This document shows positions 31,727 through 37,889 of a DNA stretch of 64,000 bases, in pieces. The stretch is from Candidatus Heimdallarchaeota archaeon (GTDB lineage: Archaea > Asgardarchaeota > Heimdallarchaeia > Hodarchaeales > Hodarchaeaceae): positions 96,001 through 160,000 of the forward strand of contig RDOB01000004.1 of assembly GCA_011364965.1 (NCBI GenBank). The letters run 5' to 3'. The first letter of the stretch is position 1. The number at the start of each line of letters is the position of its first letter. The notes under the pieces were generated by a model. The model was given only the letters and a program-made list of their open reading frames with translations, did no database searches and was not told where the DNA came from. The position numbers and the translations under genes are program-made.

Positions 31727-31921
31727 ATGATGAAGTTAATAACCGTGCATCTCCCAAATGATCAAGTTTCTGGTTTAGATGAGCTCGTTCGAACTGGTAG
31801 ATATCCTAACCGAAGTGAAGCTATTCGTTTTGCTATCCGTGACATGCTCAAAGATGAACTTTGGAATTTAAGAGGTACCTCCTATCTTCCTCAAGCATCT
31901 GCAGCACGAGATAGCTACTAA
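31727..31921 (+). CDS. cdrS: Ribbon-helix-helix regulator, CdrS-like (archaeal cell-division regulator family)
   Basis: 'MKLITVHLP..Q...LDELV..GRYPNRSEAIR.AIRDML' matches the CdrS/CopG pattern; GAGGT SD; strong T-tract downstream. Confidence 0.8.
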   Translation: MMKLITVHLPNDQVSGLDELVRTGRYPNRSEAIRFAIRDMLKDELWNLRGTSYLPQASAARDSY

Positions 31922-32083: not shown

Positions 32084-32725
32084 TTGATTTTAGTTGATAT
32101 TATGTATGAAGATAAGCAACCTCGAGCTTGGAGATTTGTTAAAGATAAAACTCCTATTATTGGAATTGACGATGGTGGCTTTGATCGGGACCTTATTCCT
32201 TCCAACACAAATCAAATACCTGTTTTTGGTGTTGTAATGAAAGGTGCTGCTTATGTTGACGGAATAGTTCAATGTCAAATTAAAAAAGACGATTTAAATC
32301 CCACTGAAATTCTTGTACAAATGATTCTTGCTTCTACTCATAAGCCTCAGCTTCAAGCGATCATGCTTCAGGGAATTACTATTGGTGGATTTGGAGTTAT
32401 TGATATTCGTGAATTATTTGAAAAAACTGGAATTCCAGTGATAGTTTTGCTAAGAAAAATTCCGAATTTTGAAAATATTCAACTTGCCCTTCAAAAGAAT
32501 TTTCAGGATGCTGAAGAGCGATGGCAGCTTATTCAAAAGGCTGGAACACCGCAAAAAATTCAAAATCAACCTGAAATATATCTACAATTAGCTGGAATTA
32601 GACAAATTGATGCGGCACGTCTTATCAAAAAGTGTACTAAGGTTGGAGTCATTCCTGAAGCGCTTAGGATTGCTCATTTTATAGGAGCTAGTCATTATCG
32701 CTTCTATAGTAGATTAGTGAGTTAA
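32084..32725 (+). CDS. DUF99/UPF0215 family (endonuclease V-like fold, 'endonuclease dU')
   Basis: 'IIGIDDG', 'LQGITIGGFGVIDI', 'IPEALRIAH'. Confidence 0.85.
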   Translation: MILVDIMYEDKQPRAWRFVKDKTPIIGIDDGGFDRDLIPSNTNQIPVFGVVMKGAAYVDGIVQCQIKKDDLNPTEILVQMILASTHKPQLQAIMLQGITIGGFGVIDIRELFEKTGIPVIVLLRKIPNFENIQLALQKNFQDAEERWQLIQKAGTPQKIQNQPEIYLQLAGIRQIDAARLIKKCTKVGVIPEALRIAHFIGASHYRFYSRLVS

Positions 32726-34263
32726 ATGGAAGGAGGAAAAAACTCTTCCTTCAATAGAACTAGTGGGGCAAGTAACCAGGTAGCAGCTCCCCCTATCACA
32801 AACGAGGAAAAATTATTCACAAACGTCCATCCTGACTGACTCCAGCCCCAAATCCCTATCAGTATAATATTTATTGAAAAGATTAACGCAATCAGTGAAT
32901 CACGAATAACATGAAATTCTCTATTCCACACGCTTGTTTCACTGAGAGGAGTGTTTTTTAATAATAATCCTTCGACCACCCCAGTAATTAAATATAAAAA
33001 TGCTCCCATAGAAAACAGGATGAACGGAATTAAGTGAAGAATACGACGCCAAACTGGTTGAGTTCGTTCTTCCCAGTATATTGCAAGGAAAGCGTCGAAT
33101 AAATAGGCTAGACTCACCAATGATGGCATTAAATAGGCAAGATTGAGTCCAAGAACGTAGGGACGGAGTATTGGTATATTTAAGATGATCATTGTGCACA
33201 AAATTGTAATAAAAGCAACGATACTGATCCCTGAAAAGAAAGCAAACGCGTTCAGAATAAGTTCTAATTTTTCAGCCCATTTAAGCTTGGAGCTCAAGAT
33301 AGAACGTGTTCTAATTCTCAGAATGTGGCATGCTCCATGTGCCCATCTCCACAATTGAGACACTTGGCTTTTTGCCGTTTCGGGTACCAAACCAGTAGAT
33401 CCAATATGGTCAATGTATCTTCCTTTGCCCCCATTGCTTAAAATTTTAATTGAGGTATCAATATCCTCAATAAAGGTCTCCTCTGAGAACCCATCGATCT
33501 CGGTTAAAATATTTTTTCGAAAACATCCAGTTGTTCCATTAAATAACACTACTCCACGTCGATCCTTGGAGGATTCGAACACTTCATAGAACTGGGAGTA
33601 TAATATTGAGTTAGCTGCTTGATATAAACGATAAGTATTTCTGTATCGCACTTTTGCTTGCACGTAACCCACATTTTTATCACTCATTACCTTTGAAAAC
33701 TTCTCTAATATATCTGGGGTAGGTATGTGATCTGAATCCAATATAACAATTAAGTCTCCCTTTGTGTGGGTTAAAACAGCATTTATATTCCCAGCTTTAA
33801 AGCCACGTGTGTCGTGCTTGTGATAAAAGGGGATTTTCTTTTCTATACAGAATTTTTGCAAGTTTTTAGTTACTTCTGGATCTTTTCCATTATCACTTAC
33901 GATAATTTCATATTTAGGGTAATTTATTGCTAAAACTCCTTCTATCGTAATTTTCAATGTTTTGAAGGAGGTTCCATGGGATGGGATTATTATTGTGAAA
34001 AAGGGGTTATATTCTGGAGTAAACTCGAAAATTTGCGATTTATACCGAAATTCGAAGGCACCTGACGCAGTATAAAGCAAATAATACCCGAATAGAAACC
34101 CAATTATTTCAACAAATAATAAGGAAATATTTAGGAAAATCTCAAACAAATTACCTGAATTCATCATCACGAAAAAACTCAAGACAATATAAACTGGCAA
34201 TAAGCCTAGAACTAGGATTGAAAGAGCTTTAAGAACATATGAACTCACACGATATATCCACAT
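32722..34263 (-). CDS. Processive GT2 glycosyltransferase, cellulose-synthase-like
   Basis: 'GFKAGNIN', DxD (DSD), 'FNGT', 'IED', QxxRW (QLWRW); 2 N-terminal and about 5 C-terminal TM helices. Confidence 0.88.
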   Translation of the reverse strand: MWIYRVSSYVLKALSILVLGLLPVYIVLSFFVMMNSGNLFEIFLNISLLFVEIIGFLFGYYLLYTASGAFEFRYKSQIFEFTPEYNPFFTIIIPSHGTSFKTLKITIEGVLAINYPKYEIIVSDNGKDPEVTKNLQKFCIEKKIPFYHKHDTRGFKAGNINAVLTHTKGDLIVILDSDHIPTPDILEKFSKVMSDKNVGYVQAKVRYRNTYRLYQAANSILYSQFYEVFESSKDRRGVVLFNGTTGCFRKNILTEIDGFSEETFIEDIDTSIKILSNGGKGRYIDHIGSTGLVPETAKSQVSQLWRWAHGACHILRIRTRSILSSKLKWAEKLELILNAFAFFSGISIVAFITILCTMIILNIPILRPYVLGLNLAYLMPSLVSLAYLFDAFLAIYWEERTQPVWRRILHLIPFILFSMGAFLYLITGVVEGLLLKNTPLSETSVWNREFHVIRDSLIALIFSINIILIGIWGWSQSGWTFVNNFSSFVIGGAATWLLAPLVLLKEEFFPPSI

Positions 34264-34357: not shown

Positions 34358-35206
34358 TTAAAATCCCAACTTCCCTGCTAAGTAATCTGCCCATCCTTGA
34401 GTAAATTTTTCAGGGCTGTTTATATGATTCCAATAAACAGGTGCTTCAGGAAGATAACCATAGATAAGGTTTTCATTTGCTAATTCGGGAAAGATATTTT
34501 TTTCCAATGAAGATACTTCTTTTGTAATATATTCAAAAATTTCTGGTTCAAAAATATAAATCCCTGCATTGTTATATCCCAATCCCTTTTTTCTGCTGTA
34601 ATTAAAATGAACAATTCTCTTGTTTTGGATATCAAATTCTACCTGGCCTGTTTCATCTTCTATTATAAACATCGTAGCAATTCCCCCTTCTTTCACACTT
34701 TTTCTATGAAATTCTAACATATCATTAACATTAACATTAGTTATAAGATCTCCATTCATGACTAAAAAAGTGGATTTCATATTTTGTTGGGCGTTCAATA
34801 CTGCTCCTGCTGTATCCAATGGTTTTTCTTCAGCTATAAGGCTGATACTCTTACCTGGAGTATTAGTTTCTGGAAATTGGTTTTGGATGTGTTCCTTAAG
34901 ATATCCTACTGAAAGATAAATATCTGTTAAGGCATGTCTGAGTAGAAGATCAATACAATATTGAAGTATTGGTTTATAGCCGATGGGGAGCATAACTGCG
35001 GGTATAGCAACATTAACTGGCCTAAATCCAGTTCCTCGTCCTCCTGCGAGAATTAAGGATTTAATAGTATGCGCTTCTAGGGCAACTTTTAATGCTTGGA
35101 TTATAAATTGTTTTACCTTGCCAGTTCCTGCTACTTCAACAAGATTTAACCAAAAATTTTCTGTAAATTCTATTGTATATTTATGGATATCTTTTTTATT
35201 ACTCAT
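34358..35206 (-). CDS. RHH-like domain fused to a degenerate NDP-sugar pyrophosphorylase (NTP_transferase) domain
   Basis: N-terminal strand-helix-helix; 'LILAGGRGTGFRP...PAVMLPIG', 'EEKPLDTAG', 'NGD', 'NAGIYIF', 'SLEK.IFP'; no LbH domain. Confidence 0.8.
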   Translation of the reverse strand: MSNKKDIHKYTIEFTENFWLNLVEVAGTGKVKQFIIQALKVALEAHTIKSLILAGGRGTGFRPVNVAIPAVMLPIGYKPILQYCIDLLLRHALTDIYLSVGYLKEHIQNQFPETNTPGKSISLIAEEKPLDTAGAVLNAQQNMKSTFLVMNGDLITNVNVNDMLEFHRKSVKEGGIATMFIIEDETGQVEFDIQNKRIVHFNYSRKKGLGYNNAGIYIFEPEIFEYITKEVSSLEKNIFPELANENLIYGYLPEAPVYWNHINSPEKFTQGWADYLAGKLGF

Positions 35207-35408
35207 ATGAAGTCTTCCGTGTGTTTACCAACTCATCTTTCTTTCCTAGTGGTCATGGACTTTAGGTATATTAACCCATACTGATAATACTGGTAGGAAA
35301 AACGGGTTATTAAAACGTTTTCTATGGCATATTGAAGGGATTTATGAATTGAGTCAAATGAAGAGAGAGGAAGAGATGAGAGGGAGAATCTCACTTCACG
35401 AATTATTT

Positions 35409-36413
35409 TTATTTTTCCCTTTCAATAAGGAATCTGACTAAAATTTTGAGAAATTCTATTAAATCATCTGCTTCGGTGTCATCAGGTGAGATTTCATTTT
35501 GTACTTCATCTAATCCGTTTATTGCAGCATTATAGTACTTATTTCTTACTTCCTTCACCTGTTCTGTGCATGAATGAAAAACCTGTAAAACATATTTGAT
35601 GTCTTCTTTGCTTTTTTCTCCCACAGATTTATTATAGATAGCTTTTATTTTCTCCGCGTGTTCTGTTTGGAGGGCAAAATATAGGAATAAATTCCTTTTT
35701 GATTCTTGTATATCCCAATATTGAACTTTCCCAAATTGCTCTGGATCCCCCTGAATGTCTAAATAATCATCTTGAATTTGAAAGGCGATTCCAGCATCAA
35801 TTATGGCTTTGTCTAATTTTTTGGTAAATAGATCCATTCGATTGGCTGCAAGACACCCTAGTCGGACGCATCCTGCAAAGACAATAGCAGTTTTTAATTC
35901 CATGATTTTGATCACGTGAGCTAAATCAAAATTAAAGTTCTGATCCAATCTATCTTCTAATTCTATAGCGTTTCCTAAACCCACTTGATACGCATAATCT
36001 ATTACATAAAACAGACTGGGGTTATCTTTGAGGAGCGTTAGGGCATAAGCATGTAAAACGTCTCCATCATGGAGGGCACGATCCCGACCATGAACTATAT
36101 GGAATGAATCTTTTCCACGTCGAATTGGAGCATTGTCTATAAGATCATCATGGATCAATGTCATGTTATGCAATAGCTCAATGGCGATTGCTGAATTATA
36201 AGACTTCTGCATCGCTTCTTCCTCCCCATTACTTCCTTCAGCTAATAATTTAGTCGTAAGTGCAATCAATGAGGGTCTTAGCTGCTTACCTTTGGTAGAT
36301 AGAATAAAATTTCGAATTCGTTCTTTCGTGGGACTCTCCATTGCTTCGATTGCTTGATCTAGCTCTTTGTTTAAATTTTCCAATATTACTTCATCTAAGA
36401 ATTGTTCTGCCAC
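35409..36413 (-). CDS. idsA: Trans-polyprenyl diphosphate synthase (GGPP synthase-like)
   Basis: GKQLRP, FARM DDLID..RRG, KT, SARM 'AFQIQDDYLD', 'FGK'. Confidence 0.85.
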   Translation of the reverse strand: MAEQFLDEVILENLNKELDQAIEAMESPTKERIRNFILSTKGKQLRPSLIALTTKLLAEGSNGEEEAMQKSYNSAIAIELLHNMTLIHDDLIDNAPIRRGKDSFHIVHGRDRALHDGDVLHAYALTLLKDNPSLFYVIDYAYQVGLGNAIELEDRLDQNFNFDLAHVIKIMELKTAIVFAGCVRLGCLAANRMDLFTKKLDKAIIDAGIAFQIQDDYLDIQGDPEQFGKVQYWDIQESKRNLFLYFALQTEHAEKIKAIYNKSVGEKSKEDIKYVLQVFHSCTEQVKEVRNKYYNAAINGLDEVQNEISPDDTEADDLIEFLKILVRFLIEREK

Positions 36414-36608
36414 TTGTTAAGACCTCATTACTCTGTCATTACCGCAAAATGCTCATTAAATTGTTAGGTGGGATATTCAGGTTTCTTTTTTGAAAAAGAT
36501 TAAGTAGGACTATATTTTTAGCAATTATATAATAGATTTGCTCAAAGATTGGGAGCTATTGATAATTTTATATTGATAATTATCTTGGTATAAATTAGGG
36601 TATGTAGC

Positions 36609-37889
36609 TTGGAACTATTAATTTGCATTGAGTGTGGACAAGAAACTCCACCAAATCGGTATTGTGTATTTTGTGGGAATCCTCTGCCTCAAATAAAATT
36701 ATGTTGGCGCTGTCAATCTAGGATACCCATTCAAATGAATTTCTGTACTAATTGTGGAGCTAATCTAAACCAAAATTGGAATTATGTATCTAATTTGGCC
36801 CCATCAAGATTTGATAAGATTCTATTATATTTTCAAGCGGGGATTTTAGTTATATTCCTCCTATCTATGTATTTCTTTGTTCAGATTTTGCTGGGATTCA
36901 TTTTATTCTCAGTATTTGCTGAAAATCCTTCAATGGAAGACGCGAGTTCAATTTCTCTAACAGTTATTGTTATGATACTGAGTAATATTATAATGGTGGG
37001 ATTGATAACTAAAATTTCTCCCTCAACCTTTGGAAAAAGTCCATCAAAAGCTATCACTATAAAAATACTCGTTATTTTAATTCTTCTCCTATTTTTTCTG
37101 TTATTTTTTCTAGAACTTGTCTTAATGGTTTTGAACCATATATTAGATACCGCTGGATTAAGTTCTGATCAACTTTCCCCCTATGATTCTTTTTTTGAGG
37201 ATCCTGTTAATTATATCTTGTTTGCTATTCTAGCAGTATCTATTGGTCCGGTTTTTGAGGAACTTGTATTTCGTCAAGTCTTAATTAACACAATGCACAA
37301 ACAAATTAACTCGAGATACACCCTAGTGATAATTAGCGCTATCATCTTTGCTCTCTCACATACTGCAGGAGATCTAATAGATGGATCTCTACGTTACGCG
37401 ATTCTACATTTGGCAGCTACTTTTATTCTTGGAGTGTTTCTAGGTATGCTTTTCATTTATAAAGGATTAAAGACTGCAATAATATTCCATTCTTTGTGGA
37501 ATTTTTTTTCTATTATAATACAAGTTATGGTCGAACTTGATCAAATTTCACTTCTTGATACAATTGTAATAATTTTGTTTATTATTTCTACTTCAATACT
37601 TATTTGGTTAATTCATGCAAATCGAAGAGAAATTAAATCTAGTTTAATAGAGGTGAATTTTCCGCAATTAAAAGATACAGGAATCATTGTTTTTAATCTC
37701 ATTTTAATATTAGCTTACGAATTAGCTCTACCATTAACTCTTTATTCAGAACCAGATTTCATTGCATTAACATTGATCTTAATCTTTCAGTTCCTAGGTG
37801 TGATCTTCGGTATTATTTTCATTGAAAATGAAAGACGAATTAACAGATCTAAAGGATTTAGAGCCCAAAAATCAAAAATAGGAGATTAG
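36609..37889 (+). CDS. Double Zn-ribbon fused to CPBP (Abi/Rce1-type) intramembrane protease
   Basis: Four CxxC pairs at the N-terminus; 'FEELVFR', 'FALSH', 'HSLWN'. Confidence 0.88.
   Translation: MELLICIECGQETPPNRYCVFCGNPLPQIKLCWRCQSRIPIQMNFCTNCGANLNQNWNYVSNLAPSRFDKILLYFQAGILVIFLLSMYFFVQILLGFILFSVFAENPSMEDASSISLTVIVMILSNIIMVGLITKISPSTFGKSPSKAITIKILVILILLLFFLLFFLELVLMVLNHILDTAGLSSDQLSPYDSFFEDPVNYILFAILAVSIGPVFEELVFRQVLINTMHKQINSRYTLVIISAIIFALSHTAGDLIDGSLRYAILHLAATFILGVFLGMLFIYKGLKTAIIFHSLWNFFSIIIQVMVELDQISLLDTIVIILFIISTSILIWLIHANRREIKSSLIEVNFPQLKDTGIIVFNLILILAYELALPLTLYSEPDFIALTLILIFQFLGVIFGIIFIENERRINRSKGFRAQKSKIGD

Follow-up and report, generated by a model that had tools for sequence, protein, structure and literature searches.

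The question raised by this locus is what function may be served by a nucleotidyltransferase-like protein that carries a putative ribbon-helix-helix (RHH) domain at its N terminus and is encoded between a polyprenyl diphosphate synthase and a cellulose-synthase-like glycosyltransferase. The gene is located on the minus strand at positions 34358–35206 of the window, the 64,000-nucleotide stretch of DNA from an Asgard archaeon (Hodarchaeales) analysed here, and its product (P0001) consists of 282 residues. The 52 orthologues of P0001 share 56–87% identity with it and are 281–290 residues long; the closest homologues are named Hodarchaeales, Hodarchaeum mangrovi, Heimdallarchaeota, and Promethearchaeota. 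In databases the family appears as 'NDP-sugar synthase' or 'nucleotidyltransferase family protein'.

The larger part of the chain (residues 49–267; 34406–35062, minus strand) forms an NTP_transferase domain with the GMPPB-like Rossmann/GT-A fold, recognized by Pfam, phmmer, and Foldseek. The score for PF00483 over these residues is 87.2 bits, compared to a cut-off of 21.2. The open reading frame and the NDP-sugar pyrophosphorylase-type domain noticed in an earlier, sequence-only reading of the window are both confirmed. A phmmer search of the PDB places a GMPPB-type chain first (E 2.5e-27), followed by human GMPPB (1.5e-25) and Arabidopsis VTC1 (8.9e-23), with GMPPA and the gamma and epsilon subunits of eIF2B lower in the same list. 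The AlphaFold2 model of the full-length protein, built from 87 sequences (pLDDT 88.6, pTM 0.83), superposes on GMPPB (7d72_E) with a Foldseek E value of 5.8e-20 and a TM score of 0.70. By both sequence and fold, P0001 belongs to the GMPPB/RmlA-like sugar-1-phosphate nucleotidylyltransferases, and its nearest relatives of known structure are GMPPB, VTC1, and GMPPA. The β-helix tail is missing. No hexapeptide or β-helix domain was found by Pfam, and the alignments to GMPPB and VTC1 stop at about residue 233–241 of their 360–379-residue chains, in agreement with the absence of an LbH domain proposed earlier.

The roles of individual residues in this fold were taken from the structure of VTC1, in which PPi is bound by Gly9, Thr12, Arg13, and Lys23, the catalytic residues are Asp111 and Asp219, and contacts to the base and sugar are made by other residues (PMC9168903). 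When these roles are mapped onto P0001 through the PDB alignment, Arg13 corresponds to G60, Lys23 to A70, and Asp219 to H261. This Arg and Lys, which hold the β/γ phosphates and PPi in active enzymes, are thus replaced within the degenerate signature loop G-G-R-G-T-G-F-R-P ... P-A (residues 55–70; 34997–35044, minus strand), whereas the aspartate is lost in the sequence W-N-H-I-N (residues 259–263; 34418–34432, minus strand), which stands in place of W-x-D-x-G in the orthologue alignment and has N263 at the position of the glycine. The motifs GRGTGF, PA, and WNHIN are all found as they were quoted in the earlier reading, but its count of three lost functional residues is too low, since the F-x-E-K-P motif is also gone and reads Y203, S204. 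Additionally, PLGTAG reads PLDTAG in P0001.

Conservation of these substitutions was assessed in one alignment that combines the 52 close orthologues and 33 canonical relatives. The loop Arg is found in none of the 52 (Ser in 39, Gly in 13) and in all 33 canonical relatives, and the same distribution holds for the Lys of the P-K motif (0/52, with Ala in 46, Ser in 3, and Pro in 3, versus 33/33) and for the Lys of E-K-P (0/52 versus 33/33). The metal-binding Asp of W-x-D, present in 29 of the 33 canonical relatives, is His in all 52 members of the P0001 family, and the Gly that follows is replaced by Asn in 51 of them. These changes are therefore traits of the family and not of the single protein. 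Other positions of the pocket are retained: G55, G56, E126, N151, D153, N213, G215, E235, and W259 are found in 52/52 orthologues, G58 of the glycine loop in 51–52, and K236 (the Lys of SLEK) in 46. Among them, E126 is the equivalent of the base-reading acid of VTC1, and E235 is the Glu of SLEK; the motifs N-G-D and N-A-G are likewise retained.

The cost of such losses can be estimated from published mutants, in which changes of the loop Arg reduce activity by 10^2 to 10^3.8-fold across GalU (~500-fold, T20M/R21H), GlmU (6000-fold, R18A), and ADP-Glc PPase (~100-fold) (PMC4643126). Taken with the catalytic losses, this cost makes it very probable that P0001 is not a working pyrophosphorylase. 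Since the replacement residues are themselves fixed, the family is, as judged from the alignment, a conserved pseudoenzyme and not a decaying gene. The fixed replacements (His in 52/52, Asn in 51/52) could also be read differently, as signs of an enzyme with altered chemistry or residual pyrophosphorylase activity that uses His261/Asn263 and the K-K-G sequence conserved after the lost E-K-P, and that supplies or processes the donor of the glycosyltransferase encoded next to it. Retention of D153 and E235 in every orthologue and of K236 in most of them would suit such an enzyme, as would an operon that contains a glycosyltransferase in need of a donor; furthermore, GalF, a degenerate member of the fold, keeps residual activity, and the loop Arg is dispensable in some eukaryotic UDP-Glc PPases (PMC4643126). 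We nevertheless consider continued catalysis improbable, because all 52 orthologues have lost the same four positions with roles in catalysis or in contacts to substrate phosphate, because loss of the Arg alone is so costly, and because PF00483 matches eight further proteins of the genome, six of them with higher scores than P0001. To judge from their sequences, these other proteins can supply the enzyme activity. The current annotation of the P0001 family is thus probably wrong as regards activity, and the sequences suggest that the same is probably true of the larger RHH_1-fused family described below, in which the loop is also degenerate.

The N-terminal part of the protein (residues 1–47; 35066–35206, minus strand) is a candidate RHH domain by its AlphaFold2 secondary structure, its conservation, and profile comparison with hhalign. 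In the model, an extended, unpaired segment comprising residues 8–14 (H-K-Y-T-I-E-F) is followed by helices 16–26 and 31–45, with pLDDT of about 80–90, and the secondary structure agrees between the full-length protein and the domain modelled alone. Polar and hydrophobic residues alternate in the strand K-Y-T-I-E-F, and the second helix follows a conserved G-x-G-[N/K/S] turn, so that the predicted domain has the topology of an RHH monomer, namely about 45 residues arranged as strand-helix-helix with an alternating strand and a Gly-containing turn. Residues 8–14 make no β-bridge to the enzyme domain in the full-length model, which, together with the two helices, fits an RHH monomer with its strand awaiting a partner chain. 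Conservation also peaks in this region, with a mean pairwise identity of 89% for residues 8–45 versus 73% for the rest, and relatives at 35% identity still have H-K-[Y/F]-T without exception. The extension is retained in all orthologues, and no in-frame ATG, GTG, or TTG is present near residue 48.

Direct comparison with known RHH proteins gives a less uniform picture. The Pfam RHH models do not match the N-domain even at E 10, and its profile finds no RHH protein among PDB sequences, with only two chance matches (E 1.2 and 2.5). Against a set of 19 RHH_1 domains from this and related genomes, with column shuffles as the control, hhalign brings the strand and both helices into register with their RHH_1 counterparts at P of 0.0034–0.0048, a score reached by 0/100 and 0/200 shuffles. 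Against the Pfam-positive RHH_1 N-domains of another group of fusion proteins, the P0127 family, the alignment extends over 41 columns with P 0.0023, and 1/200 shuffles does as well. The hhalign probabilities of these RHH_1 matches are 7–12%, that is, weak though in register. Structure searches with the 50-residue hairpin monomer are uninformative due to its small size: the best match of VIA-align among 48,161 chains has Z 4.2 and all are generic helical hairpins, with the RHH protein SegB (7duv) at Z 3.4 only, whereas Foldseek finds nothing in the PDB below E 4 (NikR, 3od2_B, is at E 9.1). A feature search of the ESM Atlas with residues 1–48 returned no usable match. Prediction of a full-length homodimer from two copies and their own alignment, run without controls, scored 0.29 versus a mark of 0.42 and is counted neither for nor against an RHH dimer.

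The most telling circumstantial point in favor of an RHH domain is that two other lineages have Pfam-positive RHH_1 domains fused to NTP_transferase domains with an identical junction. In the P0127 family, RHH_1 scores 25.4 bits at residues 6–45 and the enzyme domain starts at residue 49; in P0062, RHH_1 scores 23.7 bits and precedes a canonical enzyme, the gene of which adjoins that of a phosphomannomutase. Taken together, the P0127 family and P0062 have RHH_1 at residues 4–45 and NTP_transferase from about residue 49, and the junction in P0001 lies at the same place. The N-domain is, in our judgment from these comparisons, probably an RHH domain. The RHH N terminus proposed in the earlier reading is supported by the predicted strand-helix-helix architecture and by in-register profile alignment, but it gains no Pfam match and the profile support is weak. 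The lack of any match in Pfam or among PDB sequences, as well as the return of nothing but generic helical hairpins by structure searches, would also be expected if the extension were a helical hairpin specific to this lineage and served as a cap or gate for the nucleotide pocket of its own chain. Such a role is hard to reconcile with a segment 8–14 that forms no β-bridge to the enzyme domain, as would fit a strand awaiting its partner, with in-register matches to two independent RHH_1 sets that beat 199–200 of 200 shuffles, and with a junction identical to that of the Pfam-positive fusions, and it appears to us improbable.

The likeness of P0001 to the P0127 family, which is found in Asgard archaea, and to P0062 extends to the order of domains and the length of 270–290 residues, and the P0127 family is also devoid of G-x-G-T-R and P-K. 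Their enzyme domains, however, form a separate lineage with 26% identity to P0001 over the enzyme domain only; the classical R-S-R-S-E start of the RHH helix is absent in P0001; and their neighbours are UDP-glucose/GDP-mannose dehydrogenases or a phosphomannomutase instead of a GT2. Databases already hold such RHH_1 plus NTP_transferase proteins, named simply nucleotidyltransferases, and among the papers searched none was found that links RHH to a sugar nucleotidyltransferase, fusions of the P0127 type included.

Closer relatives of the N-domain provide a view of its history. An HMM of the domain, compared with 1.84 billion proteins, retrieved six representatives, five of which are full-length fusions to NTP_transferase and one a fusion fragment of 109 residues. 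No stand-alone homologue was found among these proteins, and therefore no bridge leads from the N-domain to classical RHH proteins. In f3, another Heimdall family of the same class, the P0001-type N-domain fusion is present in 23/29 genomes; H-K-[Y/F]-T-[I/V]-E-F is invariant in these relatives, and their enzyme domain keeps the Arg, the Lys, E-K-P, and the Asp. Neither the synthase nor a GT2 neighbours the f3 genes in 10/10 loci. Another relative, P0125, has lost the Lys alone, and its gene follows that of a UbiA prenyltransferase. A link to isoprenoid genes was considered as a general rule and rejected, since P0123 and the f3 genes have unrelated neighbours.

In a tree of the enzyme domain only, all bearers of the P0001-type N-domain form one group (SH-aLRT 94), P0125 is the sister of the disabled family (92), and the RHH_1-positive fusions are found elsewhere (89); this tree results from a quick search, and its midpoint root serves for drawing only. 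Provided that the root lies outside the group, the presence of the N-domain on intact-motif enzymes in f3 relatives suggests that the fusion preceded inactivation, which would have taken place in the lineage whose gene became part of the GT2 operon.

That operon is defined by the two flanking genes, both on the minus strand. Upstream of the P0001 gene lies the gene for a trans-polyprenyl diphosphate synthase of 334 residues resembling GGPP synthases (35409–36413), which matches polyprenyl_synt of Pfam with 175 bits and has GGPP_syn as its best NCBIfam match, under the cut-off of that model. In turn, a membrane GT2 of 513 residues (32722–34263), assigned by Pfam GT2 families, starts 94 nt downstream of the P0001 gene. 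It matches CelA of NCBIfam with 144.8 bits over residues 23–398, under the equivalog cut-off, and BcsA chains in the PDB with E 5e-25. The motifs D-S-D, E-D, and Q-L-W-R-W (Q-x-x-R-W) are present in its translation, together with flanking membrane helices, in keeping with a BcsA-like processive glycan synthase, and no PilZ domain was found in it by Pfam. The earlier reading was correct in placing a co-oriented processive GT2 directly downstream. The polyprenyl synthase that heads the three-gene operon had escaped it.

The order polyprenyl synthase, P0001 gene, BcsA-like GT2 is conserved in 20/20 loci of the same genus. In 13 of the 20, only 34–49 nt separate the end of the synthase gene from the start codon of the P0001 gene, on account of which the three genes most likely form one transcription unit. 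The P0001 gene is found in 19 of 21 genomes of the genus. In the remaining two, G010 (one contig, 96% complete) and G009 (80% complete), neither the P0001 gene nor the GT2 gene was found, which fits a module gained or lost as a unit. A TFB gene is also located near the P0001 locus.

Within the window, the P0001 gene is preceded by a spacer of 202 nt (35207–35408) that is absent in most orthologues. It includes the hexamer ATACTG at 35278 and 35287, as noted earlier; as a cis-element, however, this direct repeat was rejected, since 53% of shuffles of the 202-nt leader hold at least one hexamer repeated within 20 nt and the leader itself is missing from most orthologues. With P0001 encoded by the middle gene of the operon, the relevant promoter is probably upstream of the synthase rather than in this spacer. 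Gene order points to the divergent intergenic region at 36414–36608 as the probable promoter of all three genes, and this region is probably the better place to search for an operator. Its counterparts in orthologues hold a conserved promoter-like element, whereas the copy in the window has diverged. An element of the type GGCTATCGGTTAAGGAAACCTATTAAATA is carried by the promoter of at least one orthologue.

Among the operon promoters, no conserved repeat or palindrome suited to an operator was found, nor was one seen that the f3 genes share, and the k-mers that 16 operon promoters have in common with 7 regions upstream of f3 genes are limited to AT-rich and promoter-like words. The sequence T-A-T-Y-G-G-T-W, followed by a TATA-like box, is found in about 7 of the 18 operon promoters and in 5 of the 10 f3 leaders; it is absent from the window and is not over-represented genome-wide. 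Given its patchy distribution, it may serve as a lead only.

The location of the P0001 gene between the synthase and the cellulose-synthase-like GT2 suggests that the most likely role of its product is that of a sensor or regulator of this module. We tentatively propose, and would give it close to an even chance from what the sequences and models offer, that P0001 descends from a GDP-sugar-type pyrophosphorylase, is disabled, carries an RHH-type domain, and acts as a DNA-binding nucleotide or nucleotide-sugar sensor of its own operon. The earlier reading likewise saw in it a one-component regulator; its anatomical observations are borne out more strongly than they were put, with four instead of three catalytic positions lost in all 52 orthologues, and its functional part stays a proposal. 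RHH proteins form intertwined homodimers with a two-stranded antiparallel ribbon and bind specific DNA sequences at repeated half-sites. Two chains of P0001 would pair in this way through their N-domains, and the β-ribbon of the dimer, with K9, T11, and E13 pointing outward, would read DNA. The former active site would bind a nucleotide or nucleotide-sugar without turnover, since the residues holding PPi and one of those holding metal are lost, while those on the base and sugar side are kept. Occupancy of the pocket would then alter DNA binding and thereby set the expression of the synthase, the sensor, and the GT2. It is speculation, but retention of the base-reading Glu could point to a guanine nucleotide as the ligand. 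In active enzymes, the Lys of E-K-P sets the affinity for the sugar-1-phosphate and holds the β-phosphate of the NDP-sugar (PMC4643126); as this Lys is lost in P0001, binding of the NDP-sugar product is not guaranteed.

Several of these observations are also consistent with P0001 being a regulatory or scaffold subunit that does not bind DNA but associates with the cytosolic face of the GT2 or with an active pyrophosphorylase, its N-domain being a mere dimeriser that replaces the β-helix. P0001 would then be comparable to GMPPA, GalF, or the large subunit of plant ADP-Glc PPase. Dead paralogues of this fold do regulate by protein contact, as GMPPA does with GMPPB (7d72), and as does GalF, and the β-helix that P0001 does not have is what makes the dimer in GMPPB and VTC1 (PMC9168903). 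The co-inheritance and joint absence of the P0001 and GT2 genes, a GT2 without a regulatory domain of the PilZ type, the lost Lys of E-K-P, and the failure to find an operator in the operon promoters or in common with f3 would all suit such a subunit. The same can be said of the N-domain itself, which is unmatched by the Pfam RHH models, is near-neutral in charge in the P0001 family, and has an invariant Glu at one of its ribbon positions; this Glu and the near-neutral charge are unusual for a DNA-reading face. Moreover, the P0001-type N-domain is also found on enzymes that seem to be active and whose gene neighbourhoods are unrelated, which is as compatible with a role in structure or oligomerisation as with DNA binding. 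On the other hand, a bare dimeriser has no need of solvent-facing H8, K9, T11, E13, and K32 that remain invariant across relatives with 35% identity and differing contexts; f3 and other relatives with this N-domain have no GT2 neighbour; and the homologues of the N-domain, together with the two Pfam-positive fusions, point to the RHH class, the known members of which bind DNA. We therefore regard the subunit role as rather unlikely, though the strongest of the alternatives, and the DNA-binding sensor remains our preferred, if tentative, reading of P0001.

A sensor of this kind would have parallels among characterized proteins. NikR and PutA are RHH transcription factors with a C-terminal ligand-binding or enzymatic domain; in NikR, the occupancy of the ligand site sets DNA binding, and PutA is both an enzyme and a repressor. 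By analogy, P0001 would resemble them in that a larger metabolite-binding domain follows directly, in the same chain, on an RHH-type module of some 45 N-terminal residues, and the counterparts of PutA, as enzyme and repressor in one, would be the f3 relatives, whose motifs are intact. The C-terminal domain of P0001, however, has the NTP_transferase fold and is neither an ACT-like nickel domain nor a proline dehydrogenase. In a different way, the pairing of a processive BcsA-like GT2 with a dedicated, in this case putative, sensor of a nucleotide-type ligand recalls bacterial BcsA, which is regulated by c-di-GMP through PilZ, although the candidate sensor here is a separate protein with a different fold.

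With GMPPA, GalF, and the large subunit of ADP-Glc PPase, P0001 shares the fold and a disabled signature loop in a protein that is under selection. GMPPA is reported to have lost catalysis through changes in its signature loop and to serve as a regulator still able to bind nucleotide-sugar (PMC11228364), and GalF and the ADP-Glc PPase large subunit are comparable cases (PMC4643126). P0001 has lost more positions than GMPPA (Arg, Lys, E-K-P, and Asp). Furthermore, GMPPA acts on GMPPB through its β-helix, whereas P0001, for all its inactivating changes, has no such docking domain and carries an RHH-type domain instead, so that it does not qualify as a regulator of the GMPPA type. The architecture of P0001 thus resembles both NikR/PutA and GMPPA/GalF but makes it a member of neither group.

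Very little is known about gene regulation and the building of the cell envelope in Asgard archaea. In its broadest form, our proposal is that P0001 is an Asgard one-component transcription factor with a dead GDP-sugar-type pyrophosphorylase as its sensor, adjusting the transcription of a surface-glycan module to the nucleotide-sugar pool, and that living relatives preserve a series from enzyme to sensor, from the intact RHH-fused f3 enzyme through the loss of the Lys alone to the disabled, operon-locked form. In this extended form the proposal is somewhat more doubtful than the sensor role by itself, although still a possibility worth considering. If it is true, the archaeal lineage closest to eukaryotes would possess a ready-made and testable sensor-regulator for a cellulose-synthase-like module, and the family would offer a clean natural series in which a metabolic enzyme already equipped with a DNA-binding domain became a pure sensor. 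P0001 would then be a prokaryotic, DNA-linked counterpart to the reuse of dead members of this fold in eukaryotes, as seen in GMPPA and in the gamma and epsilon subunits of eIF2B.

Upstream of the polyprenyl synthase gene (35409–36413, minus strand), which opens the operon, the same-genus orthologous loci (L053–L066) have in common a promoter-like block, AAAAGG-CTATCGGTT-AAGG-AAACCTATTAAATA, located approximately 108–139 nt before the start of the synthase. In these orthologues the block is followed by a leader of ~100 nt that contains hairpin-like palindromes, such as GGTCACAC..GTGTGACC. The copy present in the window (compared over 36414–36608) has diverged from those of the same-genus orthologues, and in the f3 genes, relatives from another Heimdall family with intact enzyme motifs, AAAAACCTATTGGTTAG is found at positions −125 to −150. 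These words show no genome-wide enrichment. The promoter-like block is a possible operator or activator site. A second element, an inverted repeat running right up to the ATG (for example, TGGGAAT-GTTG-AATCCCA-ATG), occupies the final ~20 nt before the start codon of the middle gene, encoding the RHH-pseudoenzyme, in several short-spacer orthologues (L053, L055, L062, and L065, among others). This repeat, absent from the window, could form an RNA hairpin acting on translation of the middle gene.

Divergent from the operon in the window, and likewise at locus L002, lies a gene for a CPBP/Rce1-like intramembrane protease (36609–37889, plus strand; 426 aa), which carries two zinc-ribbon-like C-x-x-C pairs at its N terminus. 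Just downstream of the GT2 gene, on the opposite strand, are found a stand-alone RHH_1 protein of 64 aa (31727–31921, plus strand; 34.3 bits) and an Endo_dU endonuclease (32084–32725, plus strand), a pair that occupies the same position in L002 and L003.

A BcsA-like GT2 with 35% identity is encoded in G013, a genome from a sister family within the same order (L087:220–3084), without the RHH-pseudoenzyme. It is adjoined by an Arf-like small GTPase and a Roadblock/LC7 protein, an arrangement in which a related synthase may be regulated by other means.

Fusions of RHH_1 with NTP_transferase are also found in two separate lineages. P0062 (L005:539–1369, plus strand), with RHH_1 scoring 23.7 bits, retains every canonical motif of the fused enzyme, and its gene overlaps the 5′ end of a phosphoglucomutase/phosphomannomutase gene; the protein may act as both enzyme and repressor, in the manner of PutA. 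In the P0127 family (~60 proteins of 270–290 aa), a Pfam-positive RHH_1 at residues 6–45 is joined to an NTP_transferase domain that has, like that of the window's protein, a degenerate signature loop (G-G-[N/G]-P-x-x-L ... Y-R-P-L, with neither G-T-R nor P-K). The member at L049:1472–2311 (plus strand; G008:C52, same genus as the window) is flanked on either side by UDP-glucose/GDP-mannose dehydrogenase genes, and none was found in the window's own genome, which is 87% complete. The P0127 family is probably another unrecognised group of RHH-pseudoenzyme regulators.

P0125 (contig ENA ERZ23498361), a relative bearing the same N-terminal domain as the window's protein, has lost only the Lys of P-K. 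Its gene is preceded, across a gap of 44 nt, by one for a UbiA-family prenyltransferase. This adjacency, lacking in other relatives, is a second link between the family of the window's protein and isoprenoid-lipid genes.
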